Assembly: GCF_004010195.1 (NCBI RefSeq)
Contig: NC_057718.1
Span: forward strand, 88,331,355-88,395,354
Origin: Chiloscyllium plagiosum
Lineage: Eukaryota
Direction: 5' to 3'
Length of the DNA stretch: 64,000 nt
The position numbers and the translations under genes are program-made. Below are positions 2,279 to 49,945 of this stretch, piece by piece; positions within the stretch are counted from its first letter, which is position 1, and each line of letters opens with the position of its first letter. Below the pieces are notes generated by a model, which ran no database searches, had not been told where the DNA came from, and saw nothing but the letters and a program-made list of their open reading frames with translations.

Positions 2279-3334
2279 TAACATTACCAACATTTTGGGC
2301 ATAATCTAGGGCAACAGTCACATGCTTTACACATCCACATCCCATGGCATTAGATAATGCTAGCCTGTCTGCACTATCGTGGCACATCTCCAGTCCCTTT
2401 AAAATCTGTTTCTGCACACTTTGAAGCTGATAGCAACTCTCATTGCAGTACTGCTGCAAGGACACCTTGTGCCTACTTGAATGCATTTCTGCATTGCCTT
2501 TAATGCAGACACAAACCCAGCAATTCGCCATGCTTGTCAGTGCTAATCAATTGACATGAACATGTTGCTGCATCTCACCACACTACATTAACATCATATC
2601 AGCCAACAGCTTCATGGTAACTGCTTCAACCAAATGGCCATGTCTTAAAGTTGGAGTGGCGACAGCCTCCTATTGGGATATCATTGCACAGTAACTCAAG
2701 GGCAACCTTTGATATTAATCAACGGGGTTGGGTCTAGTCAGGACCCTCTAGGTGTAGGGGGTGAGGAGCTGAAAGTTATTCACTAGCATCACTTGTAGTG
2801 GTTTTTTCTCTCTTATGGATTGTTTTCTTCTGGATGTGAGAGAGAGAGAGAGATCAAATGAGATGCAAGTGGCTGGCTACTACGATTGGGGGAAAGATGT
2901 AAAATGAATCTGGGGATTTATTGGGAGTATATTATTGAATATCATTGCAAGGTGGTTAGATTTATCTGAATGGGAGCACTATTCATTTTCAGGTCTTTGC
3001 TTATATTTCTCAAGTGAAACCTTTGTCCTCATCCTGTTTTACCTATAATCCTAGGTAAATCATATAATCATAGCTTCAACTGTCCAATCCCCAAGCTCTG
3101 AAATCCACTCCCTAAATCTCCCTAACTCTGAGACCTCCTTTAAAAATGCTTTTAAAAATGCTTGTTTTTCAAAGCTTTTGATCACCTGTAATAATATTAT
3201 CTAATAGGTATTAGCACCAAGTGGTATCTGATAATATTCCAGTGAAGTATCTTGGGACCTATTATTCTGTTAAAGGTGCTATATAAATATAACCTGCTGC
3301 TGTGGTTCTGTTCGCCGAGCTGGAAGTTTTTGTT

Positions 3335-3374
3335 GCAAACGTTTCGTCCCCTGTCTAGGTGACATCCTCAGTGC
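3335..3374 (-). ncRNA. Minimal type I hammerhead ribozyme (family C, left arm)
   Basis: Reverse complement of 3462-3501 with the core intact. Confidence 0.75.
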
Positions 3375-3461
3375 TTGGGAGCCTCCTGTGAAGCGCTTCT
3401 GTGGTGTTTCCTCCGGCATTTACAGGAAACATGACAGAAGCGCTTCACAGGAGGCTCCCAA

Positions 3462-3501
3462 GCACTGAGGATGTCACCTAGACAGGAGACGAAACGTTTG
3501 C
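3462..3501 (+). ncRNA. Minimal type I hammerhead ribozyme (family C, right arm)
   Basis: gca-CUGAGGA-u-[GUCaCCU agac AGGaGAC]-GAAA-CG-UU^ugc; stem I gca/ugc; palindromic ACGU stem III. Confidence 0.78.
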
Positions 3502-4069
3502 AACAAAAACTTCCAGCTCGGCGAACAGAACCACAGCAATGAGCACCCGAGCTACAAATCTTCTCACAAACTTTGAATAAATATAACCTTTTGCTTTTGT
3601 TCTGTGCACTTCAATTTGTGTATATTGCTACTGGTAAGAGCAGAAACACAACTTGGGATGCTAACCAATCCATTAGAATGTCCCAGTATAATTTTTAGAC
3701 CTGTGCTGCCCTACTGCTCTAGATATACATTAGCAACGTTTTCAAACTGGGCTGTCTACTTTGTCTGGACATTGAAAACTTATTGATATTCTGAAGTCAC
3801 CCTGTGCTAATTCTGTTCTTTTAATTGCTTTGGTAGTTGTTCATTCCTTCTCCCAATGTGTCCCAATTAGCATGTCAGGATTGGATTTAATTCTTTTTCA
3901 GGTAACTGAACACAATTCCTTTCCCAAATTGTGACTGCAACCACTATGCTATGGCACTCTGTTTTAGTGTTTGTTGGCCTTTGGCTTCCTTCTCTCAGTT
4001 GCATGTGTCTTTGACAAAAACAATCCCATACATTGATACAGTACTTCCTTGGTCTGATTTGTAGAGGAT

Positions 4070-4295
4070 TTCATGGCATCATTTGAAAAAGAGCAGGGGC
4101 ACGCTTCTTAAAGTCCTTGATAATACTTATCCCTCAAACAATACTTCAAACAAAACCGGTGTTCTGGTCATTATCATATTTTCTGTTTGTGAGGCTTCCC
4201 TGCATTACAGCAGTGACTTCACTCAAAGTACTTCATTTTGCATTGGGATATCCTGAGGTTGTGGATTATACTACGAAGACTCAAATATTTCTTCT
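4070..4295 (+). mobile_element. Decayed DeuSINE/SacSINE1-like SINE (Deu domain plus L2-like tail)
   Basis: catggca..tttgaaaaagagcagggg..tatccctcaa..ctggtcattatca..tgtttgtg..cattacagcagtgact resembles the Deu domain as I recall it; related copies at 8735, 24080, 52905 and 62170. Confidence 0.6.
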
Positions 4296-4759
4296 TCTAA
4301 AACAAAGACACAAAAGTTAGTGGAGAAAGTGATTGATGATTATTCTGCCAGCTGCACCTTACCATTGCTATTACATTGGTGAATCCATGTAACTTGTAGT
4401 CTTAGTGTCACTGCATGAGATATACATTCTACTTTTGTCTACTGCTGTCATACTTTTCCAAAGTACATATAAACACTAATTTATGTAATCTATACATTAC
4501 CATTTGTATCTAGAGATTCTGATTGACTAACCTGTACAATTTGAAGTTTGAGATCTGGTTGTCAGAGTTGTATCCATTTAGCTGTGACATGCTGATGTAA
4601 AGTTGGTTTGTTTTCAAAAGGGACAAAACAAATGGACCAACTTGAACATTGTTGGTGCAATGTAGAGTGGACCATGAAAGGCTTGGTGATAATTTAAACC
4701 TGTTAATGAGACAAATGTTTGTGATAACATTTGAGTGGAAACTGGTGGACCATAATTCA

Positions 4760-5131
4760 TAAGCTGGGCTATTTTCCCTGGAGCATCAGAGGCTGAGGGT
4801 TGACCTTAGAGGTGTATAAAATCATGTGGATCATGGCTAGGGTGGATAGCCAAGGTCTTTTCCTCAGGGTAGTGGAGTCCAAAACTAGCCTGCATAGGTT
4901 TACTGTGAGAGGGGAAAGATTTAAAGGGGCCCGAAGGGACAACATTTGATGAACGCTGGTACAATTACGACATTTAAAAGGCACCTGGATGGATATATGA
5001 ATAGGAAGGGTTTAGCGGAATATGGGCCAAATGCTAGCAAGTAAGACTAGATTATTTAGGATACCTGATAAGGGGTATCATGGACGAGTTGGACTGAAGG
5101 GTCTGTTTCCAAGCTGTACATCCCTATGACT
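4760..5131 (+). mobile_element. CR1/HER1 LINE 3' fragment
   Basis: LGLFSLE..RLRxDL motif region and CR1 3' UTR. Confidence 0.85.
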
Positions 5132-5479
5132 ATCTTGTATGTGGCTCAAGATAAGTGATAAGATAACAATTCATCATTCCCAGATTTATTTGATGTTGGA
5201 GTTGATTTTACCATTGCTGCGACGTTAACAAATTGTACCTTGGCAAATGTAGACTTAAAGTATATGCCACTGAGGAATGAAGATGATTATTGTAGAAGAA
5301 TTCTGGAGTTTGGTTAAATTATTTGTTCTGAACTAAATAGTGGAGTCCCTTGACAGACATTGTACATTGTTTACACAACCTTAAAGCTTGCTTAGTTTTT
5401 CAAAGGAATTGGAAAAGGTCAAATTAAACATTTTCAGTAAGCTTTCAAAGTAGCATGCAGTTAGATAGTCAGCTGAATT

Positions 5480-5557
5480 TGTGTGTGTGTGTGTGTTGTG
5501 TGTGTTGTGTGTGTTGTGTGTGTTGTGTGTGTTGTGTGTGTACGTGTACACGCGCGC
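5480..5557. repeat. (TG)n / (TGTGTGT)n microsatellite
   Basis: Directly visible. Confidence 0.95.
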
Positions 5558-6659: not shown

Positions 6660-6960
6660 TTTGACTCTTTGATGGCACTGTCCCCTTCATGTTATAATGT
6701 TAGACTCAAGTCCCACTACCAAGGTTTGAAAATATAATCCAGGCTGACATTTCAATACAATGCAGAGAGTGCTTATTGAATTTTGACGTTCAGATGACAA
6801 GTTAAACTGAGACCTAATCAGCCCTTCATGGACATAAAGTCGCTATTACTGGCAAAATTCAATTAGAAATATGCCAGTACTTTATGCACAGTGCAATCCT
6901 CCAAATAACAATGTGATTAAAGACTACATCATCTGTGTTGGTTAAAGGCAAGGCACAAGA
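6660..6960 (+). mobile_element. Decayed DeuSINE/SacSINE1-like SINE, 5' part
   Basis: tcaagtcccact..ataatccaggctgaca..agatga..gttaaactgagac motif shared with other copies. Confidence 0.5.
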
Positions 6961-8720: not shown

Positions 8721-8734
8721 CATGTTGAAACAAG

Positions 8735-13895: not shown

Positions 13896-13998
13896 TGCGA
13901 AAGCTAGTGCTTCCAAATAAACCTGTTGGTCTATAATCTGGTGTTGTGATTTCTAACTTTATACACCCCAGTTCAACACCAGCATCTCCAAATCATGA
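13896..13998 (+). mobile_element. Penelope-like family B terminal repeat fragment with tail
   Basis: gaaagctagtgcttcc...catctccaaatcatga; 5'-truncated inside the hammerhead. Confidence 0.8.
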
Positions 13999-15129: not shown

Positions 15130-15725
15130 ACGAATAAGTTATTTAGAAAAGGCAGGCATGAGCAAATCAGAGAACAAAGTAACTCTGAAGAGTTAAACTG
15201 CTTTTATTTCTATGCAAGGGGTGTTACAGGTAAGGCAGATAAAAGTGTGACTGGGATTATTACAGAAACATGACTGAGGAAAGGACAGGACGAGCAGCTC
15301 AATGTTCTGGGGTTTCAATACTATTGGAAAGATAGAAAGGCAGACAAAAAATGAAGGGGAGTGGTGTTTTTGTTTAAGGAAACATTACCGCTGTACTTTA
15401 TGAAGATATTTCTGAGTTAAACACATATAGCTTCATTGGACGATCCCTCACAAAGAAGGGGATAATCAGAATTATTGATGATTGTTAGAATTAAAAACTG
15501 ATAAATCTCCAGATCCCAATAATCTACATCCCAAGATACTTAAGCAAGTGGCCCTAAAAATAGTGCATGCATTGTTGCATTGTATTTTAAGGTTTTGTAG
15601 ATTCTCAAACAGTTCCTATGGATTGAAGGACAGCTAATGTAACCTCACGTTTTAAAAAAAAAAGGAGGTTGAGAAAAATTACAAAATTGTAGACCAGTTC
15701 GCCTGATGTCAGTAGTGAGGAAAAT
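15130..15725 (+). mobile_element. Decayed CR1 fragments (endonuclease start and pre-RT region)
   Basis: LNCFYFYARGVTGKAD (APE start); KTDKSPDP and FKK.G..NCRPV-like segments. Confidence 0.7.
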
Positions 15726-15925
15726 GCTGGAGACCAGAGTTTGAAAAATGTGGTGCTGGAAAAACACAGCAGGCCAGACAGCATCCGAGGAGCAGGAGAA
15801 TCGACGTTTCGGGCATAAGCTCTTCTTCAGGAATGAAGGCTTCCTGAAGAAGGGCTTATGCCCAAAATGTCGATTCTCCTTGGATATTGTCTGGCCTGCT
15901 GTGTTTTTCCAGCACATTTTTCAAC
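15724..15925 (-). mobile_element. Penelope-like fold-back insertion, family A
   Basis: Inverted arms about 15741-15833 and 15841-15924 carrying ctgaagaagggcttatgcccgaaacgtcga-type hammerhead cores, each with one substitution; partial tail on the left. Confidence 0.82.
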
Positions 15926-17130: not shown

Positions 17131-17935
17131 CCAATAAACACAATGTTTATTGTTTATGACTCTAATAGAGTGAGATGGATGTAGGTGAGTTCAAAATGAT
17201 GAGCCACACATCTCACTTGCCGTTTTATGGCAGCCTTATGTTCATAATCTTAACTTTTGACATTTTTTATCAGTTTAAATTGCATTTACTCTCAACAGTG
17301 CAGTAATTACAATCACATATTAGAAGAACAGTTATTCCTCTTTTAGCCTGGTTTGTTATTGAAACTTTTTATTCTGTGTTTTCAACTGAAAGCAGATTTA
17401 AAGGGATAGAAATTAGCATAAAACAGTATTTTTTTTTGTGGTATAGCAAGTTAGTGATTTTGACAGTGAGCTATGAACCCAGAGGCCATGATTTCTATTC
17501 CCGCCACTGCAAATTGTAAAGTTGAATTCATTAATTCTTTGTAGATGGCAGCAGGAACATTTAGCATGAAGCTGTCACATCATTATATAAACCCATTTGG
17601 TTCACAGCTTTCCTTTAGGGAGGGGTTTGCTATCCTTACCAGGAATGTCTATTTGATTGTGGACCCATATTTTCCGGATCTGCTGAGTTTCTCTAGCAAT
17701 TTCTGTCTTAGCTTCAGGTTTTTATGACAATTGATAGAGACATGCTCACCATTAATGATACCACCATTTTATTCCAGATTTATTTAACAGAATTAAAATG
17801 TAGGATTTGAACTCATGTATATGTTCATTAGTTTAGGCCTTTAGATTTATAATTCAGTACGTAAATAGTATGGTATGGTTCCCATAACCTAACTTATATG
17901 ACCAATGTGTGGGGGAGGAAAAACCCCAAAGAACC

Positions 17936-18121
17936 GGATGCTGGCAATCCGAAACAAAAACAGAACTTGTTGCAAAAGCTCAGCAAGTCTAGCAGCATCC
18001 ATGGAAAGAAAACCGAGTTATTGTTTCGCATTCTGGAAAAGGGTCACTGAACCTGAAACTTTGCTTTCTCTCTATACATGTTATCAGACCTGCTGAGTTT
18101 TCCCAGTAATTTTGTTTTTGT
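17936..18121. mobile_element. Old, degenerate Penelope-like fold-back (family D)
   Basis: Imperfect inverted arms (ctcagcaagtctagcagcatc / gttatcagacctgctgag) around a decayed core ctggaaaagggtcactgaacctgaaac; related single copy at 53180. Confidence 0.6.
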
Positions 18122-18999: not shown

Positions 19000-19538
19000 T
19001 ATGAGCAGATAAGGTAAATTGACAAGGTCTTTTCCCTGGTTAAAAATCACACAATACCAGGTTATAGTCCAACAGGTTTAATTCTAAGCACATTAGCTTT
19101 TGGAGCGTGAAGGAGCGGCGCTCCAAAAGCTAGTGTGCTTCCAATTAAACCTTTGGACTATAACCTGGTGTTGTGATTTTTAACTTTGTACACCCTAGTC
19201 CAACACCAGCATCTCCAAATCTTCTTTTCCCTGAGGTTGGGAGTTGAGAACTGGAGGGCATAGGTTTAGGGTGAAAGGGGAAAGATTTAAAAGGGACCTA
19301 ACGGGCACCGTTTTCACCCAGAGGGTGATTCGTGTATGGTGTGAGCTGCCAGAGGAAGTGGAGGCTGGTACAATTACAGCATTGAAAGGGCATCTGGATG
19401 GGTATATGAATAGGAAGGGTTTGGAGGGATGTGGGCCGGGTGCTGGCAGGTGGGACGAGATTGGGTTTGGGATATCTGGTCGGCATGGACAGGTTGGACC
19501 GAAGGGTCTGTTTCCGTGCTGTACATCTCTATGACTCT
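19000..19538 (+). mobile_element. CR1/HER1 3' fragment interrupted by a Penelope-like insertion
   Basis: ORF 19244-19534 (HRFRVKGERFKRDL) and 3' UTR; continuity restored across the TSD. Confidence 0.85.
19039..19222 (+). mobile_element. Penelope-like fold-back insertion, family B
   Basis: Arms 19039-19107 and 19119-19184, 38-nt tail, 11-bp TSD tcttttccctg at 19028-19038 and 19223-19233. Confidence 0.85.
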
Positions 19539-21991: not shown

Positions 21992-22135
21992 TTATGCTGG
22001 GAAGGAAGATATAAGGGTTTCTTGAATCTCCAGACCTGTGAAATCACTTAGCAGTATTTCTTTAGGGACCCTGCCAGCTTGAGAGCGCTTCCTTAAGGGT
22101 GAGTACAGTATTGCAGTAATTGTGTTTTCATTTTA

Positions 22136-22276
22136 TCATGATTTGGAGATGCCGATATTGTACTGAGGTGTACAAGGTTTAAAAATCACAGAACACCAGG
22201 TTTAGTCCAACAGGTTTGATTGGAAGCACTAGCTTTCAGAGCACTGCTTCTTCATCAGGTAGTTGTGGAGTAGGCA
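22136..22276 (-). mobile_element. Penelope-like family B terminal repeat with tail
   Basis: Reverse complement reads cctgatgaagaagcagtgctctgaaagctagtgcttcc...catctccaaatcatga. Confidence 0.8.
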
Positions 22277-23500: not shown

Positions 23501-23833
23501 CACAATTGTAGAGTACAGTTTTGATTTATGTTAGAATGTAAAGTTTCATCCAATCAATTACAGCGCAGTATAGAAATTTGTACGTACAGATTTGGAGCGA
23601 TGTTTGTTGTGAAACATAGGATAAGACTGGTGGGTACTGCAGTGGACTCTTGCATCCCATGGATTTGTCCCTGTTGGCTTCTGTTTTTTAATGTGTGCAT
23701 CATGTTCCTGTCGTTTGCCTTGAAAATTTGAACTCCTCTCCATCATGATTGAAAGGAAAAGATGGGTGTGATTACCAGACCAGTTTTTGCTGATCAGATT
23801 ATCATTACCTGTAACTATCACTGATTCAGGAAA

Positions 23834-23985
23834 AAGTTAAAAATCACACAACACCAGGTTATAGTCCAACATGTTTAATTGGAAGCAGCTGATGAAGGAG
23901 CGTTGCTCCGAAAGCTAGTGTGCTTCCAATATTGTGTGATTTTTAACTTTGTACACCCCAGTCCAACACCGGCATCTCCAAATCA
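23834..23985 (+). mobile_element. Penelope-like fold-back insertion, family B, in the last intron
   Basis: 12-bp TSD tgattcaggaaa at 23822-23833 and 23986-23997; inverted arms and tail; intact core ctgatgaaggagcgttgctccgaaagctagtg at 23889-23920. Confidence 0.85.
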
Positions 23986-24079
23986 TGATTCAGGAAAGGG
24001 TAATTATGAATATGATAGATTTCAAAATTGAGTGTGCAAAGCAAGATATTGATAAGTAGCAGTAAAATGAAAAGGGGAA

Positions 24080-25800: not shown

Positions 25801-26051
25801 TGTTGCATCTCCATATTTCAGTAATCTTAAGATTTTTGAAACTGAAATGCCTTTGCAATACCTTGTTACATCAACCAAATGTACCTTGAAGGGTAGCAAG
25901 TGTTGTGCATCTATCTTGTATACCAGAGTCCATGAAATAATTGACCAAGGAATCTCAGGCAAACTAAAAATGATGTATGGTACTAACACCTAAGTTGAAA
26001 CTTTATTGCTGGAACAGCACAGCAGGTCAGGCAGCATCCAGGGAACAGGAG

Positions 26052-26087
26052 ATTCGACGTTTCGGGCACAGGCCCTTCTTCAGGAAT
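26052..26087 (-). ncRNA. Minimal type I hammerhead ribozyme (family A, left arm)
   Basis: Exact reverse complement of 26678-26713. Confidence 0.78.
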
Positions 26088-26677
26088 GAGCAGAGAGTGT
26101 TCAGCAGGAGAAGATAAAAGGTAGGGAGGAGGGACTTGGAGGAGGGGCGTTGGAAATGTGATAGGTGGAAAGAGGTCAAGGTGAGGGTGATAGGTCGGAG
26201 TAGGATGGAGGCGGAGAGGTCAAGAAGAAGACTGCAGGCCAGGAAGGCGGTGCCGGGCGGGAGGGATCCGGCTGAGACAAGGGGGGGGGAGGGGGATGAA
26301 GAAACTGGTGAAGTCCAAGTTCATCCCCTGCGGTTGGAGGGATCCCAGTCGGAAGATAAGACGCTCCTCCTCCGACCGTCGCGTTGTTGTGGTTTGGCGG
26401 TGGATGAGTCCAATGACCTGCATATCCTCGGTGGAGTGGGAGGGGGAGTGGAAATGCTGTGCTACAGGGTGATTGGGTTGGCCCAGAGGTGCTCTCTGAC
26501 GGTCCAGCCCGGCACCGCCTTCCTGTCCTGCAGTCTTCTTCTTGTCCTCTCCGCCTCCATCCTACTCCGACCTATCACCCTCCCCTTGACCTCTTTCCAC
26601 CTATCCCATTTCCCACGCCCCTCCTCCAAGTCCCTCCTCCCTACCTTTTATCTTCTCCTGCTGAACACTCTCTGCTC

Positions 26678-26713
26678 ATTCCTGAAGAAGGGCCTGTGCC
26701 CGAAACGTCGAAT
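26678..26713 (+). ncRNA. Minimal type I hammerhead ribozyme (family A, right arm)
   Basis: auuc-CUGAAGA-a-[GGGC cugu GCCC]-GAAA-CG-UC^gaau; 4-bp stem I auuc/gaau; predicted cleavage after 26709. Confidence 0.8.
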
Positions 26714-28087
26714 CTCCTGTTCCCTGGATGCTGCCTGACCTGCTGTGCTGTTCCAGTAATAAAGTTTCAACTTTGATCTCCAACATCTGCAGACCTCACT
26801 TTCTCCACTAACACCTAAGCAAAGCCAAGTATTTGTTAGTTATGAAGACCTATGATTTTGAGGTATTTTCAACCATTTTTCTTTACAAACCCCACAGTTA
26901 TTTCTTGGCTTATATATATTTCTCACTATAAATACAATCAAAATATATTCCATGCAAAGCCATGCTAGTGTTTACAAGGTTTTCTTTCAAATTTATCAGC
27001 TCTGCATCACATGAGTATTATTAGGTAATTTTCTATTTGATTCATCAACATTTTTAGGAAAAAATTAAGGAAAATTTCAAATGATGTTAAAACTTATTGT
27101 GTTTGATTGAAAGGAATTATACTGAGGTAAGAATTATACTAATGTTGGTTTAACCTCTTTGATGCATGAAGCTACCTGATCCCTCACTGAAGTGTCTGTT
27201 TGAATTTGTTTTTTTATGTTTTCATGCTTTTCTGAATCCCTCATTGACTGCTTTCTGGAACAGTGACTGCAGTTTTAACATCTATTCCTCTTCTAACAGT
27301 GTCCTCTCTGAGCACCTTCAGGTGCTGGAGTTCAGTGATGATGAAGGGATTCTGGGAACAATGTTGGTGAATTCTGTACACTTTATTCCTTTTACTTGTG
27401 GTGGGGTCAGTTCGTGTGTCTGTGTCTTTGATAAGTGATTAATGATTAATTTGTTAATGTTTCTTCTTTGTTCTCTGGCTGTATTCCAATGATCACTAAT
27501 TTATCTGTGTTTTGTTCTATTTTGTTTCTAATGAGTATTGAAATACTTTGCAATCCATGTTTACAAGCTAATAAAAATCATGCAAATGTTATTTCAAACT
27601 GACATCACATTATCTCTACGGAATCTTTTGTGTGTGGTTATTTAAATGTACAGTTCAAAAACAGGCCATTTAACCCAACTGGTCCACACCAGTATTTAAG
27701 GCTCATAAGTCTCCTCCCACTGTATTTCATCTCACCTTATCAGCATTCCCTATTATTCCATTCTCTCTTGTGTTTATCTGGCTTCTTAAATGTATATAGG
27801 CTGTTCATCTCAACTATTTTCTGTTCTGATTTATAATTCCATGTTGTCACCATGTTTTGGATGAAGAATTTATTCTTGAATAACTTTTTGGATTTATTTG
27901 TGTTTATCTTAATTTTTATGGGCCCTAGTTTTGTGTTTGCCACAAGTGGAGAAACATTTTTATTACTACTATCTGCAGAATTGTAAGGACTTGTTAGGTC
28001 ATTGTTTAACCTTTTTCTAGAGAAATAGACCCCAGATTGTTCAGTTTTGTGGTCGTTATAATCCCAATCCTAATATCTCTCCTTTTT

Positions 28088-29054: not shown

Positions 29055-29067
29055 TTTGTTTTATAAT

Positions 29068-29359
29068 TTGGAGGTGCCGGTATTGAACTGGGGTGTACAA
29101 AGTTAAAAATCTCATAACATCAGGTTATAGTCCAACAGGTTTATTTGGAAGCACCAGCTTTCGGAGCGCTGCTTCTTCCTGGCAACCACCTGATGAAGGA
29201 GCAGCGGTCCAAAAGCTAGTGCTTCCAAATAAACCATGATTTGGAGATGCCGGTGTTGGATTGGGGTGTACAAAGTTTAAAAATCACAACACCAGGAACC
29301 GTTGGACTATAACCAAATAAACCAGTTGGACTATAACCTGGTGTTGTGTGATTGTTAAC
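29068..29359 (-). mobile_element. Penelope-like family B fold-back containing a second, nested family B insertion
   Basis: Outer TSD tttgttttataat at 29055-29067 and 29360-29372; inner TSD ccaaataaacca at 29225-29236 and 29313-29324. Confidence 0.85.
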
Positions 29360-30105
29360 TTTGTTTTATAATGTTCCCAAAAGTCTTGAACGCAGTGACT
29401 TAGTGGGTTAAAATGCATGTCCAGTAAAGATCAGATCCTGAGTTAAAACCTAAGGGGTGTCTGTCCGAGTCTGTTCCATTATTCCTTGGAATGAGATTCA
29501 ATGCTACAAAAATATCAGTTGGTCACCTGAATAGTTCCCACTACAAAATAGTTTCCCTTTTATGTCACTCAATAAAACCTGGAATCTAAACAAAGCCTTT
29601 AAAAATTGATGTTTTAAGCAATGGAAGCAGCTGACCAAATTTCTCACTCAAAGATCTCATGTATTTGGACTTCAGGCAAACGGCTTGGTTTCACCCTTGC
29701 AGTGGAAGAGCCCAAAACAGTTCCTTTCAATCTTTTTTTTTTGGTTTGGCCCAAAAATTGGCTCTTTGTTAATTTGAGATACTTTCTCACCTGGACTTCA
29801 GATTATGCTACAGGTGATTGACCCTGTCTAGACAAAGGGTCAAACTGTCACTAACTGATGAATCATAAAATCTTACAGCATGGGGAGGCGTTTGACCCTT
29901 TCTGCTGTGCCATCCTTTTGAAGGAGCTATCTAATTTCATATCTCACCCTAGGTTTTTCGGGACTGCCTTGCAAATTCCAGAAGTCCTGCTATTCGTAAC
30001 TCTGAAGTCAAGTCCTCTGGGGTGGGGTAGGTTCCTGTGGGAAGGGACAGCCTGTGTGCATTCCATATTGAACAGGAAAAAAAAATGTGGTTGGATGTCA
30101 GGATG

Positions 30106-30435: not shown

Positions 30436-31550
30436 AGCTTAGCTATAATGATCTGCATTCACTTGTGCTAAAATTTCCATGAAGTCGTTTAATTCTCTAC
30501 ATGCCGAATGATTCAAATACCATCATGTGAACATTTGTAACTCTCGTCCAGGCTACTGGAAACTTATGCAGCTCCTAAATATCTTTACATTCCAATTTGA
30601 AAACCGAATACAGCAAATGTTGGAAATCTAAGTGACTTGGCATTTTAATTGTTTTAGTTTCAGTCATTTAGTGAATTATTGCCTTGGGGCAAAGATGTCT
30701 GAAGACCACATCCTAATTTCATCCTGAAAAATCATCAACCCTATTTGTCACAGGATGCTATCATCTTGTTTTTATTCCCCAAATAGTTTGGTTCCATTTC
30801 TTTCATGTGCTACTTGGCTGTCAAGTTTGACAGTGTAGCTATATGTACTAGTCAATTGAAGCACTTTCAGTTGGAACTGACTCTAAGTTTTTATGGGCAA
30901 GAGATGCTTTGCTAATTTGTATCAGATCACTGTAGTATCCAAAGTAGGCCTTCGTTTTCTTCTTTAACATTGTGTTGGTGGCTGGTTTTATTTCTATAGA
31001 AATGCGCTTATGTACTGTATGTAGTCTAATGTTACCATGTCAAAAGTGGGCCTCATCTTGCATAAGAATGTTACAAAGAATTACATTGTCACTTTGATCT
31101 TCGAGTTTGATCTGTCATTCAACAAGGCTAACTATCCTCTACCTCAGCCCTATCTTCTCATTCTATTTCCGTGTCTCTTAACTTGTTTAGTGAGAATAAA
31201 TAAGCATTGATTTTTGTCCTGAATATTCTCAAAAAGTGATCATCTGCCATACATTCTTGGTCTTTTACCTGTGGATTTAAACAGTCACTGGTTAGACAAT
31301 AGCTATCAGACACTCTGACCTTGGGATTTGGCAGAGTAGAATTATTCTTTTTGCGGCCAAGCTGCCACCATTCTTCTCAGCCCCTATTCCATGGCACCAT
31401 TAGTGATATAGTGTGATGGCTACTAACACATGCAATGAGTTCTGAATCTATCAATGTTCTCATTACCCTGCCTCTGACAATAGCTGCTATCCCAGGTCTA
31501 AGTGTCTTCATCTATTCTATAATCAACAGAACACTGTGCATCCAAATCCA

Positions 31551-31780
31551 TGATTTGGAGATGTACTATCATGGTATTCGAACAGATGAAAGACTCAACA
31601 AACAATCAAGGTATTTTTCAATGTGTCATTTCAATTACATCACACTGTAAACTTTTGCTATAAATTCTGTGTCTTACAATTGTGTCCTCCACAACCACCT
31701 GATGAAGGAGCAACGCTCTGAAAGCTAGTGCTTCCAATTAAACCTGTTGGACTATAACCTGGTGTTGTGTGATTTTTTAA
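31551..31780 (+). mobile_element. Penelope-like family B insertion (longer terminal repeat with a short inverted tail remnant)
   Basis: Starts tgatttggagatg (reverse tail); degenerate 12-bp TSD catccaaatcca at 31539-31550 and cattctaatcca at 31781-31792. Confidence 0.78.
31696..31730 (+). ncRNA. Minimal type I hammerhead ribozyme (family B)
   Basis: cac-CUGAUGA-a-[GGAGC aac GCUCU]-GAAA-GC-UA^gug; stem I cac/gug; palindromic AGCU stem III. Confidence 0.75.
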
Positions 31781-32054
31781 CATTCTAATCCAGTGATACA
31801 TGAATAGTATGCTTGTCATTTTGTTAAATTTAGGTATTTGTCCTTTGAAACTGTGTCACTGCTTGGCTCAGGAACCAATCTCAGAGCCCAACCTTTGAGC
31901 TGTACATGGCCATCTTGGGAAGATACTGGAAATCTTAGCCGCTGTACCCAGATCATTCTCAAACATTGTTTAGTATAAATCTCTGTGACATATAAATCTT
32001 TGGTTCTGGAAGGAGTGAGAAAACCGGAAACTATGGGCCAATATCTTAACATAT

Positions 32055-32545: not shown

Positions 32546-34063
32546 CATCAAGAATTTATAAAAATATATTTATATATAATCTAAATAGTCATAGCGAAGT
32601 ACAGCATGGAAATGGACCCTTCAGTCCAACTCGTCCATGCTGACCAGATATCCTAACCTAATCTAGTCCCATTTGCCAGCACTGGCCCGTAACCTCCTAA
32701 ACCTTTCCTATTCACATACCCATCCAGGTGCCTTTTAAATGCTGCAATTGTACCAGCCTCCTCCACTTCTTCTGGTAGTTCATTGCATACACGCACCACA
32801 CTCTGCGTGAAAAAGTTGCCCCTTAGGTCCTTTTTATATCTTTCGCCTCTCACTCTAAACCTATGCCCTCGATTTCTGAACTTCCCCCACCCCAAGGAAA
32901 AGATTTTGTCTATTTATCCTATCCATGCCTCTCATGATTTTTTCAACCTCTCTAAGGTCACCCCTCAGCCTCCAATGCTCCAGGAAAAACAGCCCTAGCC
33001 TATTCAGCCTCTCCATATAGCTCAAATCCTCCCAAGCTTGGCAACATGCTTGTAAATCTTTATGAACACAACATCCTTCCAATGGGACGGAGACCAGAAT
33101 TGCATGCATTATTCTAAAAGTGGCCTAACCAACGTCCTGGAAGCCACAACATGACCTCCCAACTCCTGTATTCAATGCTTTGACCAATAAAGGAAAACAT
33201 ACCAAACGCTGCCTTCATTATCCTATCTGCCTGTGACTCTACTTTCAAGGAGTTATGAACCTGCTCTCCAAGGTCTCTTTGTTCAGCAACACTCCCAAGG
33301 ACCTTCCCATTAAGTGTATAAGTCCTGCTAAAATTTGTTTTTCCAAAATGCAGCACCTCGCATTTATCCAAATTAAACTCCTTCTGCCACTCCTCAGCCC
33401 ATTGGCCCATCTGATCAAGAGCCCATTGTAATCTGAGGTAACCTTCTTCTCTGTCCACTGCACCTCCAATTTTGGTGTGATCTGCAAACTTACTAATGAT
33501 ACCTCTTATGTTCACATCCAAATCATTTATGTAAATGACAAAAAGTAGTGGACACAGCATTGCTCCTTGAGGCACTCTACTGGTCACAGGCCTCCAGTCT
33601 GAAAAACAGCCCTCCATCACCACCCTCTGTCTTCTACATTCGAGCCAGTTCTATATCTAAAAGGCTAGTTCTCTCTGTATTCCATGAGCTCTAACCTTGC
33701 TAACCAGTCTCCCATAGGGAACCTTGTTGAACACCTTACTGAAGTCCATATAGATCACGTATGTGGCTCTGCCCTCATCAATCCTCTTTGTTACTCAATC
33801 CAGTTTGTGACACATGATTTCCCACAGACAAAGCCATGATGACTGTCCTTAATTGGTTCTTGCCTTTCCAAGTACATGTGAATTCTGTTCTTCAGGATTC
33901 CCTCCAACAACTTGCCCACAACCAATGTCAGGCTCGCAAGTCTATAGTTTCCTGACTTGTCCTTACCACCTTTCTTAAATAGTGGCACCACATTAGCCAA
34001 TCTCCAATCATCCGGTCCTCACTTATGACTATCGATGATACCACTTTTAAAAATTTGTTTTTT

Positions 34064-36142: not shown

Positions 36143-36279
36143 TTGCTCTTCATTCCTGATGAAGGGCTTATGCCCGAAATGTCGATTCTTTTGGTCCTCG
36201 GATGCTGCCTGACCCGCTGTGCTTTTTCAGCACCACATTCTCGTCTGATCTCCAGCATCTGCAGTCCTCACATTCTCCT
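36143..36279 (+). mobile_element. Penelope-like family A terminal repeat with tail, nested in CR1 ORF1
   Basis: cattcctgatgaagggcttatgcccgaaatgtcgatt...tgatctccagcatctgcagtcctcacattctcc. Confidence 0.8.
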
Positions 36280-42388: not shown

Positions 42389-42394
42389 AACACC

Positions 42395-42595: not shown

Positions 42596-45230
42596 TAGAG
42601 TCATAGAGATGTACAGCATGGAAACGGACCCTTTGGTCCAACCTGTCCATGCCAACCAGATATCCCAACCCAATCTCGTCCCACCTGCTAGCACTCGGCC
42701 CATATCCCTCCAAACCCTTCCTATTCATATACCCATCCAAATGCCTCTTAAATGTTGCAATTGTACCAGCCTCCACCACACCTTCTGGCAGCTCATTCCA
42801 TACACGTACCACCCTCTGCGTGAAAATATTGCCCCTTAGGTCTCTTTTATATCTTTCCCCTCTCACCTAAACCTACTCAAATCCTCCAACCCTGGCAACA
42901 TCCTTGTAAATCTTTTCTGAACCCTTTCAAGTTTCACAACATCATTCTGATAGGAAGGAGACCAGAATTGCACGCAATATTCCAACAGTGGCCTAACCAA
43001 TGTCCTGTACAGCTGTAACATGACCTCCCAACCCCTGTACTCAATACTCTGACCAATAAAGGAAAGCATACCAAATGCCTTCCTCACTATCCTATCTGTG
43101 TGATTCCACTTTCAAGGAGCTATGAACCTGCACTCAAAGGTCTCTTTGTTCAGTAACACTCCCTAGGACCTTACCATTAAGTGTATAAGTCCTGCTAAGA
43201 TTTGCTTTCCCAAATTACAACACCTCGCATTTATCTGAATTAAATTCCATCTGCCACTTCTCAGCCCATTGGACCATCTGATCAAGATCCTGTTGCAATC
43301 TGAGGTAACCTTCTTCGCTGTCCACTACATCTCCAATTTTGGTGTCATCTGCAAACTTACGAACTGTACCTCTTATGCTCGCATCCAAATCATTTATGTA
43401 AATGACAAAAAGTAGAGAACCCAGCACCAATTCTTGTGGCACGCCACTGGTCGCTGGCCTCCAGTCTGAAAAACAACCCTCCACTACCACCCTCTGTCTT
43501 TTACCTTTGAGCCAGTTCTGTATTCAAATGGCTAGTTCTTCCTGTATTCCATGAGATCTAACCTTGCGAATCAGTCTCCCATGGGGAACCTTGTCGAACG
43601 CCATACTGAAGTCCATATAGATCACATCTACTACTCTGCCCTCATCAATCTTCTTTGTTACCTCTTCAAAAAACTCAATCAAGTTTGTAAGACATGATTT
43701 CCCACGTACAAAGCCATGTTGACTATCCCTAATCAGTCCTTGCCTTTCCACATACATATACATCATGTCCCTCAGGTTTCCCTCCAACAACTTGCCCACC
43801 ACTGAGGTCAGGCTCACCGGTCTTTAGTTCCCTGGCTTGTCTTTACCACCCTTCTTAAACAGTGGCACCACATTTGCCAACCTCCAGTCTTCCAGGACCT
43901 CACCTACGACTATCGATGATACCAATATCTCAGCCAGATTCCCAGCAATCACTTCCCTAGCTTCCCACAGAGTTCTAGGATACACCTGATCATGTCCTGG
44001 GGATTTGTCCACCTTTAACCATTTCAAGACATCCAGCACTTCCTCCTCTGTAATCTGGACATTTTGCAAGATGTCGCCATCTATTTCCCTACGGTCTATA
44101 TCTTCCATATCCTTTTCCACAGTAAATACTGATGCAAAATATTCATTTAGTATCTCTCCCATTTTCTGTCTTGCTGATCTTTGAGGGGCCCTATTCTCTC
44201 CCTAGTTACCCTTTTGTCCTTAATATATTTGTAATAACCCTTTGGAATCGCCTTAATTCTATTTGCCAAAGCTACCTCATGTCCCCGTTTTGCCCTCCTG
44301 ATTTCCCTCTTAAGTATACTCCTACTTCCTTTATACTCTTCTAAGGATTCACTCGGTCTATCCTGTCTATACCTGACATATGCTTCCTTATTTTTCTTAA
44401 CCAAACCCTCAATTGCTTTAGTCATCCAGCATTCCCNNNNNNNNNNNNNNNNNNNNNNNNNNNNNNNNNNNNNNNNNNNNNNNNNNNNNNNNNNNNNNNN
44501 NNNNNNNNNNNNNNNNNNNNNNNNNNNNNNNNNNNNNNNNNNNNNNNNNNNNNNNNNNNNNNNNNNNNNNNNNNNNNNNNNNNNNNNNNNNNNNNNNNNN
44601 NNNNNNNNNNNNNNNNNNNNNNNNNNNNNNNNNNNNNNNNNCTGAATCAGAAAATTGTCTTGTACACACTTAAGAAATTCCTCTCCATCTAAACCTTTAA
44701 CACTATGGCAGTCCCTGTTGATGTTTGGAAAGTTAAAATCCCCCACCATCACTACCCTGTTATTCTTACAGATAGCTGAGATCTCCTTACAAGTTTGATT
44801 CTCAATTTCCCTCTGACTATTGGGGGGTCTGTAATACAATCCCAATAAGGTGATCATCTCTTTCTTATTTCTCAGTTCCACCCAAATAACTTCCCTGGAT
44901 GTATTTCTGGGAATATCCTCCCTTAGCACAGCTGTAATGTTATCCCTTATCAAAAATGCCACTCCCCCTCCTCTCTTGCCTCCCTTTATATCCTTCCTGT
45001 AGCAGTTGTATCCTGAAACATTCAGCTGCCAGTTCTGTCCCTCCCTGAGCCATATTTCTGTAATTGCTATGATATCCCAGTCCCATGTTCCTAACCATGT
45101 CCTGAGTTCATCTGCCTTCCCTGTTAGGCCCCTTGCATTGAAATAAATGCAGTTTAATTTATTAGTCCTGCCTTGTCCCTGCCTGCCCTGACTGTTTGAC
45201 TCACTTCTGTTCTCAGCTGTACCTGTCTCA
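42596..45230 (-). mobile_element. Relatively young CR1/HER1 ORF2 (APE-RT-3' UTR) spanning an assembly gap
   Basis: LGLYYRPPNS..VMVGDFNFP, VDKSPGHDQVYPR and SGVPQELVLG..FADDTKIG in successive ORFs. Confidence 0.92.
44437..44641. other. Assembly gap (205 N)
   Basis: Run of n characters. Confidence 1.
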
Positions 45231-46274
45231 GGATTCCCTCCAACAACTTGCCCACCACTGAGGTCAGGCTCCGGTCTATAGTTCCCTGGCTTGTCTATAG
45301 CTCAAATCCTCCAACCCTGGCAACATTCTTGTAAATCTTTTCTGAATCCTTTCAAGTTTTGCCACATCTTTCTGATAGGAAGGAGACCAGAATTGCAAGC
45401 AATATTCCAAAAAATGGCCTAACCAATGTCCTGTACAGCCACAACATGACCTCCCAACTCCTGTACTCAATACTCTTAAGTGTATAAGTCCTGCTAAGAT
45501 TTGCTTTTCCAAAATGCAGCATCTCTCATTTATCTAAATTAAACTCCATCTGCCACTTCTCAGTCCATTGTCCCATCTGATTATAATCCCGTTGTAATTT
45601 GAGGTAATCTTTGCTGTCCACTACACCTCCAATTTTGATGTCATCTGCAAACTTACTAACTACACCTCTTATGCTTACATCCAAATAATCTATATAAATG
45701 ATGAAAAGTAGTGGACCCAGCACCGATCCTTGTGTCACAGGCCTCCAGTCTGAAAAACAACCCTCCACCATCACCATCTGTCTTCTACCTTTCAGCCAGT
45801 TCTGTATTCAAATGGCTAGTTCTCCTTGTATTCCATGAGATCTAACCTTGCTAATCAGTCTCCCATGGGGAACTTTGTCGAAAGCCTTAATGAAGTCAAT
45901 TTAGATCACATCTACCTCTCTGCCCTCATCAATCCTCTTTGTTACTTCTTCAAAAATCTCAATCAAGTTTGTGAGACATGATTTCCCACACACAAAGCCA
46001 TGTTGACTATCCCTAATCAGCCCTTGCCTTTCCAAATACATGTACATCCTGTCCCTTAGGATTCCCTCCAACAATTTGCCCACCACCAACATCAGGCTCA
46101 CTGGTCTATAGCTCCCTGGCTTGTCCTTACCACCTTTCTTAAACAGTATCACCACGTCAGCCAACCTCCAGTCTCCCGGCACCTCACCTGTGACTATCGA
46201 TGATACAAATGTCTCAGCAAGGGGTTCAGCAATCACTTCCCTCGCTACCCACAGAGTTCTCGGGTACACCTGAT
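45231..46274 (-). mobile_element. Additional CR1/HER1 RT segment in tandem with 42596-45230
   Basis: ORFs 45901-46269, 45526-45777 and 45276-45512 repeat RT motifs found at 42863-43990. Confidence 0.88.
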
Positions 46275-46357
46275 CTGGCTTACTGTGATCTGCCTGTACT
46301 GCTCACAAGTGAAGCTTTTCACTTACGTGATAACAAATCAAATCAAATCAAATCAAA
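46275..46357 (+). mobile_element. Rex1/Babar-like LINE 3' end, right part with (AAATC)n tail
   Basis: tgatctgcctgtactgctc..aagcttttcact..aacaaatcaaatcaaatcaaa. Confidence 0.55.
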
Positions 46358-47614
46358 CTGATACATTGGCAGAAGATGGTAAACATTATTACGTACCCCC
46401 CAGAACAAGATTTAAACTGTCTAAATATTCCAAACGCTGAACCCAATGAAAGTACCAACATGAACATGAATTCATGCTAATACCTAGACTCACTTGTTCC
46501 ACTGCTTTAGTTGGTGGTTGTTTCTATGTTTGGCAGTGGAAGTAAATGAGAACTTGTGTTCCCTCATTGTCCTGCTGCACGCCTCCATTTTTCATCTACC
46601 TATGTGTATATGCTCATGATTTGCTAGTGTTCCATGGAAGGGGATGTTGTCATCACATCCTGGCAATTTAACATTGACTGTACAAATACATCCTGTGGCA
46701 GCTGAGCCTTTGAGCTTGTGTCATGCTCCTTGGATAAAACGGATCAGACCTTGTGCCCTACAGGAAGCCTGGATCAGCACACATTTATTTCCTCTCTCTC
46801 CGAAGAAAACATATTTAAGTGTTTTCAGCACAAGCCAACTCTATCACAACAAATTACAAACAAAGCTAAGGATTCAAATCTCTAATTGAAGTTGGAGCAG
46901 GCTTCACATGTTGTGAACCATTCTGCTAATGGTTCTAATGGACCATGACTTCTAATGAAATAATTGCATCTTTCCAATCATCTGATTTTTTTACTTGTCA
47001 CAAGATGGTCGCCATGTGACTGCACTTTGTCAGCAAGATTCAGGCCAGTTTTTCCAAACCTTTGGACTTTTTGCAAATGAATCCCCAAATGAGAAGACAA
47101 GGGAGTAGCCAATTCCTCAGCCTTTCTGTTCAGGTTTTATACTCTTGAGGACTTTTTTTTTCTCAGCAATGAATAGTTCAGCACTTTTGAGTATGTTCCA
47201 CTGTTCCATCAGAGGCTAATTTTCTACTTCAGCACCATCTTCTCACAGAATCCTCAAGTTCTTTGAATGCCTTAGTGATTATCAATCTTTGCCTTGTATG
47301 TGCCTAATGGCTGGGCATCCGCAGCTCACTGGGGTCCAGTGTTCCAAAGATTTGCAACTCTTTAAGAAATCCCTCATTAGTTCGGACCACATAAGGCCTG
47401 CCCCTTATTCTGAGATGATGGCCTGGTCCTCCCAGCTGGCAAAAACCTTGTCAAGCCCGCTAAAATGTTTCAGTGAGATTTCCATAGATTTTTGGAAGAG
47501 TGAGAGGCAGAGATGCCTGTTCCACCCTATCTCTCCACATTGAAAATCCCACTATCCTTGCAATCAGCCTACTGAACCTTTGTTGCAGTCCCTCTAAATG
47601 AATCATTTTTCACA

Positions 47615-48330
47615 ACTACATCGTAGGATCTCAAAGGAAGTGGCTACAGAGATAGTAGATACATTGGTTGTAATCTTTCAATATTTGCTGGATTCTGCGA
47701 AGATCTCAATTGATTGGAAAATCCACACGTAACACTATTATTCAAGAAATGACGGAGACTGAAACTAGGCTGTCTAGTCCAACATTGGGAAAATACTGGA
47801 ATCCTTCGTTAAAGTGATAGTTGCAGGAATTTTAGAAGCTCTTAATACATTCCAATACAGTCAAAATGGTTATGTGAGACAGAAATTGCATTTGACGGAT
47901 TTATTAGAATTCTTTGACTATGTGACAAGCAGGATGGATATAAGGAAACCAGGAGATGGAATCTGTTTGGATTTCCAAAACACTTTGCTACATTACACCA
48001 TAAAGTAGTGTTGGGGAAGATATATTCACATGGAGGCATGATGGCTGACTAATAGGAAATAGAGAGTCAACACAAATTTGTCATTTTCTAATTGACATCC
48101 TGTTAGCGATGGGAGTGCCACAGAGACCACTGATGTGGCCTCAATTAGATACAATCTATAGTCATGATTTGGATGGAGGGACCAACTGTATGACACTGCA
48201 AATGGATGTGGATAAGGTGAGAGAGTAATAAATGGTTAGCAGACATAATATTCTGTGGGAAAATGTGACGCTGTCCACTTTGGAAGGTAGAACATTATTA
48301 AAGGGAGAGAGAGGCTGGTCTCTCATCATG
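47615..48330 (+). mobile_element. Old CR1 RT fragment
   Basis: ORF 47814-48008 (LTDLLEFFDYVTSRMD..LDFQ). Confidence 0.75.
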
Positions 48331-48419
48331 TGGGATTTATCCATCCAAATCAGTCAGAGGAGAGAGAAGCAGGGTCCATGTCACAGAGTGGTTATCAGAG
48401 CTCACCACAGTGGGAGCAA

Positions 48420-49945
48420 AGCAAGTCAGCATGGGTTTAGTAAGGGGAGTCCATGCCTGACAAACCTGTTAGAATTCTTTGAAGAGGTAACAAGTAGGAT
48501 AGACCAGAGAAACTCAGTGGATGTTGTCTATCTAGACTTCCAAAAGGCCTTTGATAAGGTGCCTAACAGGAGGATGCTGAGTAAGGCGAGAACCCATGGT
48601 GTTCGAGGTGAGCTACTGGCATGGATTGAGGATTGGCTGTCTGACAGAAGGTAGAGAATTGAGATAAAAGATTCTTTTTTGGAATGGCAGCTAGTGACAA
48701 GTGGTGTCCCACAGGGTTCAGTGTTGGGACTGCAGCTGTTCACTTTATATCTTAATGATCTGGATGAAGGAACTGGGGGCATTCTGGCTAAGTTCACCGA
48801 TGATACGAAGTTGGTAGACAGGCAGGTAGTTCTGAGGAGATGGGGAGGATACAGAAAGATTTAGACAGTTTAGGAGAGTGGTCCAAGAAATGGCTGATGA
48901 AATTCAACGAGAGCAAATGTGAGATCTTGCACTTCGGAAACAAGAATTCAGGGACAGACTATTTTCTAAACGGTGAGAAAATTCCTAAAGCCAAAGTACA
49001 AAGGGGTCTGGAAGTGATAGTCCATGATTCTCTAAAGGTTGACTTGCAGGTTGAGTCCGTGGTTAAGAAAGTGAATGTCATGTTGTCATTTATTTCAAGA
49101 GGGTTGGAATGTAAAAGCAGTGATGTGCTACTAAGACTTTATAAAGCTCTGGTTAGGCCCCATTTAGAATACTGTGTCCAGTTTGGGGCCCCACACCTCA
49201 GGAAAGACATGCTGGCACTGGAGCATGTCCAGTGGAGATTCACATGGATGATCTCTGGAAAGAGCTGGAAATGTGTTGCTGGAAAAGCGCAGCAGGTCAG
49301 GCAGCATCCAGGGAACAGGAGAATCGACGTTTCGGGCATAAGCCCTTCTTCCTGAAGAAGGGCTTATGCCCGAAACGTCGATTCTCCTGTTCCCTGGATG
49401 CTGCCTGACCTACTGCGCTTTTCCAGCAACACATTTCCAGCTCTGATCTCCAGCATCTGCAGACCTCACTTTCTCCTCAATGATCTCTGGAAAGGCAGAC
49501 CTAATATACGATGAATGGCTGAGGATCCTGGCATTGTATTCATTAGAGTTTAGAAGGTTGAGGGAAGATCTAATAGAAGCTTACAAGATAATGCATGGCT
49601 TAGAAAGGGTGGACACAAGGAATTTGTTTCTGTCAGGCAGAGAGACTAGGACGTGTGGGCACAGCCTTTGAATTAGAGGGAGTCAATTTAGAATGGAAAT
49701 GAGGAGACATTTCTTCAGCCAGAGAGTGGTGAGCCTGTGGAATTCATTGCCACAGAGAGCAGTGGAAGCCTGACATTAAATGTCTTCAAGCTAGAGATTG
49801 CTAAATTCTTAATCTCACAAGGAATTAAGGGATATGGGGAGAGTGCGAGTAAGTGGTGTTGAAATGCCCATCAGCCATGATTGAATGGCGGAGTGGACAC
49901 TATGGGCCAAATGGCCTTACTTCCACTCCTATGTCTTATCGTCTT
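48420..49945 (+). mobile_element. CR1 LINE RT-to-3' end (third subfamily) interrupted by a PLE hairpin
   Basis: [39 protein letters not shown] and LVRPHLEYCVQF; tail gtcttatcgtcttacggtctta. Confidence 0.9.
49261..49479 (+). mobile_element. Penelope-like near-perfect palindromic insertion, family A
   Basis: 91-bp arms 49261-49351 and 49354-49444 (1 mismatch, 2-nt spacer), 35-nt tail, TSD atgatctctggaaag at 49248-49262 and 49480-49494; hammerhead core from 49352 on +. Confidence 0.9.

Follow-up and report, generated by a model that had tools for sequence, protein, structure and literature searches.

Short mirror-image repeats in a shark genome are best read as 5'-truncated Penelope-like insertions, probably primed from both target ends

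Insertions of EN+ Penelope-like elements (PLEs) that combine an inverted pseudo-LTR (pLTR) with a one-sided tail have been described for Pen2a_Av and its relatives, as given in the available part of PMC3846280, and a general scheme is outlined in PMC8557442, whose accessible text leaves the formation of PLE tandem and inverted ends undefined. According to the available portion of PMC11167929, PAc (Poseidon of Anolis carolinensis) has two reverse-transcription (RT) start sites that bracket the tail, both target strands are cut and extended in vitro, and a dimer is predicted; within that portion, terms for inverted arms occur once in another sense and terms for target duplications (TSDs) not at all. 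It should be noted that the inverted pLTR, the one-sided tail of 30-40 nt and the two RT start sites bounding it are already published for PLEs. The anatomy of the elements reported here is not new; what our window (the whole stretch of 64,000 nucleotides analysed) adds is a modest lead, namely an asymmetry in arm length and a tail at one end in eight out of eight copies.

L1 twin priming is the other system to be considered. There, as in the mechanism we propose below, reverse transcription of the element RNA is primed from both target ends, terminally from one and internally from the other, the cDNAs are joined via short complementarity, and a TSD surrounds the inverted unit. The internal position varies among L1 products, with hardly any overlap between the two pieces. 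Annealing of the internal primer relies on microhomology (accessible part of PMC2912911). A literature search that covered mostly open papers, with Repbase and Dfam outside it, returned no paper describing the present shark families and none applying twin priming to PLE inverted repeats; the available parts of PMC9977147, PMC12910113, PMC8969392 and bioRxiv 10.64898/2026.07.22.740005 held nothing on insertion geometry.

The best reading of the short mirror-image repeats in the window is that they are heavily 5'-truncated insertions of a known class of jumping genes, the PLEs, and not MITEs. They split into three repeat families (A, B and C), each with a minimal-hammerhead core, and comprise eight insertion events with target duplications of 11-15 bp. 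Inverted pLTR copies were present in seven elements, and direct tandem pLTRs were not seen among the window copies. As in Pen2a_Av-type PLEs (judged from the accessible descriptions), a 5'-truncated copy lies next to an inverted copy, a tail of 30-40 nt occupies one end, a TSD encloses the whole unit, and the pLTR carries a hammerhead. In contrast with those elements, the shark copies are reduced to stubs of 100-840 bp in which little or nothing of an ORF is left, and their TSDs measure 11-15 bp against 8-10 bp in rotifer PLEs.

The family A insertion (3283-3589, plus strand) consists of an inverted arm (3298-3412), an 11-nt spacer, a second arm (3424-3538) and a 38-nt tail (3539-3576), enclosed by an exact 13-bp TSD (3283-3295/3577-3589) with no overlap between arm and target. 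Hammerhead-like cores lie at 3465-3495 (plus) and 3341-3371 (minus). In family B, the largest insertion (26k; 25982-26819, plus) has an exact 13-bp TSD (25982-25994/26807-26819), an inverted arm of about 511 nt (25992-26502) that overlaps the target by 3 nt, a tail-side arm of 271 nt (26503-26773) and a 33-nt tail (26774-26806). The youngest member (49k; 49248-49494, plus) lies inside a LINE reading frame. Its two arms (49261-49351 and 49354-49444) differ by one mismatch in 91 and meet at a joint with 3 nt of shared sequence, and they are accompanied by a 35-nt tail (49445-49479), a 2-nt overlap and an exact 15-bp TSD (49248-49262/49480-49494). An older palindrome (15.7k; 15718-15924, minus) has a tail, with an internal deletion, at its left end only, and no TSD was found around it; a single arm with tail at 36145-36279 (plus) also showed no TSD.

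Family C accounts for the remaining copies. An insertion in a CR1-type LINE remnant (19k; 19028-19233, plus) has an exact 11-bp TSD (19028-19038/19223-19233), an inverted arm from 19039, another arm to 19184 and a 38-nt tail (19185-19222); its overlap is 0, or 1 assuming a mutation in the base that follows the second TSD. The 23k insertion (23822-23997, plus; exact 12-bp TSD, 23822-23833/23986-23997) has an inverted arm from 23833, an arm to 23950 and a 35-nt tail; the overlap is 1 nt where the arm meets the target and 3 nt on the tail side. The 29k insertion (29055-29372, minus; exact 13-bp TSD, 29055-29067/29360-29372) is reversed, with its tail at the left. Its tail-less arm ends at 29364 with a 5-nt overlap and extends upstream beyond the tailed arm by about 9 nt, and a 7-nt filler lies at the centre. 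A second stub (29225-29324, minus) with its own exact 12-bp TSD (29225-29236/29313-29324) is nested inside it. The 31.5k insertion (31539-31792, minus; 1-nt overlap) is not a palindrome: 14 nt of the tail end (31550-31563, minus) are followed by about 220 nt of the opposite strand (31564-31781), a piece that stops at the internal site. Its TSD, the eighth, is a degenerate 12-bp one (31539-31550/31781-31792; 10/12 identical, as read by eye, the alignment being out of register). Single arms with tails were also found at 13900-13998 (plus), with neither partner arm nor TSD, and at 22135-22275 (minus), where the copy adjoins a SINE-like repeat and no TSD was found.

Protein evidence is limited to family B, which appears to be Penelope-like of the Neptune/Nematis type, and not Poseidon like PAc, because one copy keeps the end of an RT plus GIY-YIG protein. 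This C-terminal remnant (26271-26501, minus) is carried by the inverted arm of 26k only. The encoded peptide had 392 relatives at E<=0.001; a GIY-YIG match (E<=0.01) was obtained in 10 of the 16 relatives scanned, 3 of which also matched RT. It aligned to the extreme C-terminus of an RT, Cys-linker and GIY-YIG protein (52% over 54 aa), and only the last ~60 aa of the family B protein survive. Three relatives (P0005, P0054 and P0121) carry between RT and EN a CX2-5CxxC linker, a region missing from the window copy; this zinc-finger-like linker marks the Neptune/Nematis clades in the available text of PMC8557442. Pfam gave no GIY-YIG match for the 77-aa remnant itself, a word-indexed search of longer proteins gave no match among 11 candidates, and an atlas search with the remnant returned eukaryotic clusters without names and, at 0.90, a GIY-YIG cluster, which is a lead only. 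Neither RT sequence in the window copies nor a recognizable coding remnant upstream of 31.7k was found, families A and C had no protein evidence, and an autonomous partner element was not recovered. Pattern scans for further copies gave 0 in viral contigs and 0 in metagenome contigs; 15 bacterial records from the scan of genome contigs were taken as chance matches.

The hammerhead core pattern matched six times, all within families A and B (0.8 expected), and family C has the same core with a different stem III. Like the minimal hammerheads of metazoan PLEs in the accessible part of PMC4209133, the shark motif has a CUGANGA core, an unpaired base before stem II, GAAA, a short stem I and almost no stem III. 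Rfam gave no match at gathering score and no hammerhead among the weak matches in three stretches. The pLTR contains a minimal hammerhead motif whose self-cleavage is putative. With respect to the AC-rich stem-loop in which PAc starts, families A and C show a resemblance. The internal site of family C falls in the loop of a predicted stem-loop (z -3.7), in which 0 of 13 pairs showed compensatory changes; the stem-loop in family A was not significant (z -0.9), and folding of the family B ends gave no significant structure and no stem-loop.

Duplications of 11-15 bp at both element boundaries in seven places are, by inspection, far beyond chance. All seven were exact and had the lengths that the preliminary description had reported from the letters alone (its 13-15 bp at 49k being 15 bp), and comparison of the duplications in the window revealed no common sequence. 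They also appear to be true target duplications, as a single copy was found in uninterrupted LINE paralogues at both sites tested. The 19k target occurs once in two such paralogues. At 49k, 449 reads from 125 start places skipped the element and kept one 15-nt copy, and the same form was present in contigs of three other runs; positions 49254 and 49486, in the two TSD copies, share a base missing from about 90-95% of LINE reads. These empty forms are paralogous LINE copies and not a proven orthologous locus, no piece spanning the stretch. Within the window, neither the LINE stretch at 49k nor the repeat flanking 3283 had a second copy.

The four tails first noticed (at 3283, 19k, 26k and 49k) had the lengths given for them, and each fills exactly the gap from the end of the inverted match to the second copy of the target. 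Over copies, tail lengths were 38, 38, 35, 33 and 35 nt, and 29 nt at 29k with overlaps removed. Loose read ends piled up at 49476-49478 (8,743, 16,350 and 6,799 reads among the rows listed), and the family B tail end is fixed genome-wide. The inverted arm was said to begin at a near-fixed point, which holds to within about 5 nt per family but not to the base. Similarly, the proposal of one geometry for independent insertions stood as far as tails and TSDs are concerned, but three families are involved and some copies do not fit: 13900, 22135 and 36145 are single arms without duplication, and 15718-15924 has the tail without the duplication. Arm lengths ranged from 14 to 511 nt across copies.

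On the basis of these data, we consider it reasonably probable (about 0.6) that the stubs of all three PLE families arose by staggered cutting, priming of both target ends at two RNA sites and end-joining of the cDNAs. The RT/GIY-YIG protein would cut the target in a stagger 11-15 bp apart, as the TSDs suggest, and both free 3' ends would be extended by reverse transcription of the hammerhead-bearing end of the element. One target end would start at the terminal site and the other, in the assignment we infer, about 35 nt inside, the internal site being set by RNA sequence or structure and not by target pairing; short overlaps at target junctions would be a mild bias at most. The two cDNAs may then stop at unrelated lengths and be joined to each other, presumably by end-joining, with a central joint that has 0-4 bases in common or holds a short filler, which agrees with the junction sequences seen. 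Where the cDNAs covered the same RNA stretch, a palindrome with a one-sided tail would result; where they covered different stretches, a small inversion would arise, as in L1 twin priming, and the 31.5k copy has exactly this appearance. The shark copies differ from L1 in an internal site fixed within about 5 nt, with no need of homology, and in that the two cDNAs mostly cover the same stretch. Priming at two sites, at the terminus and about 35 nt inside, had been put forward from the letters and remains the best reading in view of the arm-length asymmetry and the two published start sites.

An unlikely alternative is a single priming followed by fold-back or self-priming, in which the cDNA, or else an antisense template, doubles back at the centre and is extended along its own sequence, stops about 35 nt short of the start and joins its new end to the other target end by microhomology. 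Near-perfect palindromes with centres of 2-11 nt, the 3-nt shared sequence at the 49k centre and minority variants shared by the arms of one copy (49311 with 49394) would fit, and self-priming has been proposed for PLE inverted repeats in the accessible part of PMC3846280; four of the eight two-ended copies (15.7k, 19k, 23k and 49k) are also compatible with it. However, a fold-back arm cannot exceed the strand copied. In three of the eight (26k, 29k and 31.5k) the tail-less arm outreaches the tailed one; simple fold-back is thereby excluded for these copies, and priming from the two target ends is favoured. The excess is 240 nt at 26k, where the tail-less arm holds coding sequence absent from the tailed arm, and about 9 nt at 29k; at 31.5k, where the tailed piece is only 14 nt, the pieces do not overlap at all. 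Fold-back also gives no reason for a fixed stop equal to the start site measured in vitro.

Similarly improbable is internal priming guided by microhomology between target end and RNA, as in L1 twin priming, which was the version originally put forward. The three overlaps named for it (25992-25994, 49261-49262 and 29360-29364) are real, but overlaps of 2-5 nt occur at only three of seven junctions, the values being 0, 0 (possibly 1), 1, 1, 2, 3 and 5 nt. The total of 12 nt exceeds the 4.7-6 or so expected (two-sided geometric null, p about 0.01 at a match rate of 0.25 to 0.04 at 0.30, calculated by hand and driven by one case), and in family C the larger overlaps move the point at which synthesis could begin by as much as 5 nt. 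However, four junctions have 0-1 nt only, and leaving out the 5-nt case gives 7 nt in total over six junctions, against 4-5 expected; AT-rich targets facing a T-rich arm end raise the chance rate, and overlaps at the tail-side junctions are similar (0, 3, 0, 2, 2, 2 and 0). The start also stays within about 5 nt without homology (19k and 31.5k), and published in-vitro work sees initiation without it. Microhomology as a requirement was rejected, and guidance by it was not borne out.

We regard it as very improbable that the tail was left when an endonuclease resolved a transposition intermediate, or that whole two-armed units were copied from tandem or inverted masters formed beforehand. In the available part of PMC11167929, the ends of the tail are mapped to RT start sites. 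Both in the window and genome-wide the centres vary among copies, with many distinct joints of 0-4 shared or 1-7 filler bases, so the units were not copied from a few masters, and this origin was rejected. Despite the palindromic shape, small size and very high copy number, hardly any credence can be given to MITEs moved by a DNA transposase, as argued by the single target copy in LINE paralogues together with variable centres and arm lengths (identical ones would be expected of a fixed MITE), by TSDs of variable length (11-15 bp), by the one-sided tail outside the inverted repeat, by hammerhead cores and a PLE endonuclease remnant, and by the non-palindromic 31.5k copy; the view that the products are retrotransposed, as first suggested, is supported.

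Within two-ended priming, the tail at exactly one end in all eight two-ended copies suggests coupling of the two ends. Tentatively, integration in these families may be obligately two-ended and asymmetric, the halves of a dimer being committed to different RNA start sites and cutting 11-15 bp apart, such that every complete insertion is one-tailed. Were the two ends to pick their sites independently of each other, one-tailed copies should make up no more than half, and eight of eight would have p of at most 0.5^8, ~0.004 by hand. In PAc, by contrast, the two strands did not differ in their start site in vitro (available part of PMC11167929), and a strictly one-sided tail is thus not predicted by that text.

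If true, obligate two-ended priming would account for both the inverted pLTR and the one-sided tail with a single mechanism. The one in-vitro PLE study leaves the steps after initiation open. In such short stubs, a single read covers the centre as well as the two target junctions, so that counting them across the genome could tell two-ended priming from fold-back with no further experiments, and the abundance of copies in the shark would offer a data set already at hand for testing coupled priming. In annotation, such palindromes are easily misfiled as MITEs. For family B, a hand estimate puts the density at about one arm in every 20 kb of read sequence. Finally, three families coexist within 64 kb of this shark genome, which also sets the locus apart from Pen2a_Av-type PLEs, and the nesting of one insertion in another at 29k may be compared with the insertion of PAc into its own pLTR.

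By inverted-repeat searches, three repeat families making local inverted repeats could be recognized in the window: family A with one copy (3283-3589), family B with copies at 15718, 25982, 36145 and 49248, and family C with copies at 13900, 19028, 22135, 23822, 29055 and 31539 (copies are named below by position, for example 26k for 25982). The preliminary description was accurate on their ends: the four unpaired tails it claimed (3539-3576 and 19185-19222, 38 nt each; 26774-26806, 33 nt; 49445-49479, 35 nt) and the target overlaps it named were all present. Seven of the target site duplications (TSDs) are exact at the element boundaries (13, 11, 12, 13, 13, 12 and 15 bp), including that of a second family C stub nested within the 29k element, and an eighth, 10/12 identical, was read by eye on both sides of 31539-31792. 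The search found no TSD at the three single arms or at the 15.7k palindrome. The last 16 nt of the nested stub (29297-29312) duplicate the sequence directly downstream of its own target and resemble templated end-joining filler.

Judged from sequence, these elements are Penelope-like (PLEs). A 77-aa stretch encoded on the minus strand by the extra 240 nt at the middle of 26k has 392 relatives (E<=0.001), the best of which were from skates and the whale shark. Among 16 relatives scanned for domains, out of 150 listed, 10 had a GIY-YIG match (E<=0.01) and 3 of these 10 had RT as well. The peptide aligns (52% over 54 aa) at the very C-terminus of a protein in which RT is followed by a Cys-linker and GIY-YIG, an order given as the Neptune/Nematis layout in PMC8557442. 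A hammerhead core pattern gave 6 matches, all within families A and B, versus 0.8 expected, and family C carries the core with a different ending. These cores were not detected by Rfam search; they agree with the minimal hammerheads of PLE pLTRs described in PMC4209133. Families A and C are putatively classed as PLEs from hammerhead, tail and geometry only.

The duplications at 19k and 49k are true target duplications, and the empty forms are paralogous LINE copies. The 19k element sits within a LINE remnant, and its 11-mer target is single in two other window copies of that LINE, both of which align across the insertion. The 49k element splits a LINE reading frame, with five identical codons on either side. 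When four public runs (one of raw reads and three with contigs) were aligned to 48850-49900, a joint omitting 232 bases and retaining a single 15-nt TSD copy was found in the raw-read run (449 reads, 125 start places) and also in contigs of the other three. Both TSD copies carry T (49254, 49486) versus C in 90-95% of LINE reads; thus, the variant was duplicated at insertion. In run X9, joints connect the tail end of family B (49477) with positions 49091 and 49095 of the same LINE; these are further independent insertions in that family of LINEs and could serve as a nested-target data set.

The possibility that these are MITEs, for which identical arm lengths and centres would be expected, is ruled out by arm lengths of 14 to about 511 nt and by many distinct centre joints of family B genome-wide (with 0-4 bases shared, or 1-7 bases of filler, among the joints listed), as the preliminary description had proposed. 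The family B tail end is fixed: loose ends concentrate at 49476-49478 (8,743, 16,350 and 6,799 reads) and, in each of the other three runs, at 49477. Among window copies, the arm start lies within about 5 nt per family.

The tail was located at exactly one end in all eight two-ended copies, and no two-tailed or tail-less palindromes of families A-C were seen among the 25 longest pairs listed per inverted-repeat search, which would show them. Were sites chosen independently at each end, this would have a probability of at most 0.5^8, about 0.004 by hand arithmetic. Our tentative reading (probability roughly 0.4) is coupled asymmetric priming at the two target ends. The tailed arm is the longer in four of the eight copies (15.7k, 19k, 23k and 49k) and the tail-less arm in three (26k, 29k and 31.5k), the order at 3283 being unassigned. 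An arm made by fold-back never exceeds the strand copied; the tail-less arm exceeds the tailed one by 240 nt in 26k and by about 9 nt in 29k. In 31.5k, 14 nt of the tail end abut an opposite-strand piece of about 220 nt, which ends at the internal site, and the two pieces have no overlap. Most simply, the copies would derive from two cDNAs, one per cut target end: one would begin at the terminal site and the other at the internal site, and they would subsequently be joined to one another. Minority variants are common to both arms of one copy (for example, 49311 with 49394), and therefore the two arms share a source or subfamily. In family C, a stem-loop is predicted (z -3.7) whose loop holds the internal site, with compensatory changes in 0 of 13 pairs; family A has a similar AC-rich loop (z -0.9, not significant), and folding gave no comparable stem-loop for family B.

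Much of this has published counterparts. Rotifer PLEs have an inverted pLTR, a 31-bp tail and 9-10-bp TSDs, with self-priming proposed (PMC3846280), and PLEs in general have a 30-40-bp tail, often one-ended, and an inverted 5'-truncated copy, both traits being described as undefined in origin (PMC8557442). In PMC11167929, two start sites flank the tail, both strands are cleaved and extended, a dimer is predicted and initiation requires no homology with the cut DNA. The nearest mechanistic analogue is L1 twin priming (PMC2912911). No paper uniting these pieces for PLE inverted ends was found in the literature covered, which leaves out most subscription papers. The window elements are a real, well-formed case of an anatomy already known for PLEs; the shark families that show it here are new.

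It had been suggested that two priming events occur on one RNA end, one terminal and the other about 35 nt internal and guided by microhomology. The first part is backed by the arm-length asymmetry and consists largely of published pieces; the microhomology clause is weak. Arm-junction overlaps were 0 (3283), 0 or 1 (19k), 1 (23k), 3 (26k), 5 (29k), 1 (31.5k) and 2 (49k), a total of 12 nt over 7 junctions versus 4.7-6 nt expected (p about 0.01-0.04 by hand arithmetic). The null used two geometric variables per junction (match rate 0.25-0.30) because chance extension is possible on either side. With the 5-nt case at 29k left out, the total was 7 versus 4-5 expected. Tail-junction overlaps, read against other copies, were similar (0, 3, 0, 2, 2, 2 and 0). 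A mild homology bias is thus possible at both junctions, but homology is not needed for internal priming and apparently does not set the site.

Several other features were observed. The 26k arms (26503-26773 versus 25992-26262) differ at 7 positions (6 transversions and 1 transition), all 6 transversions falling within the first 112 nt beside the centre and 5 of these being purine to pyrimidine in the tail-side arm; this is unlike ordinary decay and may reflect either low-fidelity synthesis close to the joint or an artefact of polishing across a long palindrome. The family B tail (49457-49479) ends with a branch-point-like CTCAC followed by a pyrimidine run, and the loose letters after it begin AG or CAG, so that together they resemble a 3' splice acceptor; the consensus of the loose letters is weak (agreement 0.33). 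An inverted repeat at 55983-56266 (57-nt arms, 98% alike, 170 nt apart), in which hammerhead core, tail and TSD were sought and none found, may be a genuine MITE or else a local fold-back. Decayed LINE remnants lie at 33114-33650 (minus strand, Pfam RT match), 44147-45301 (minus), 48804-49900 (plus) and 59937-60488 (plus), and an N-run at 44437-44641. Decayed short single arms related to family B occur at 52846-52870 and 53234-53275. At 17935-18121, outside the eight counted, lies an older palindrome of a B-related family with no TSD seen; its arms are about 75% alike, its hammerhead-like core has decayed, and only its left end seems to carry a tail.
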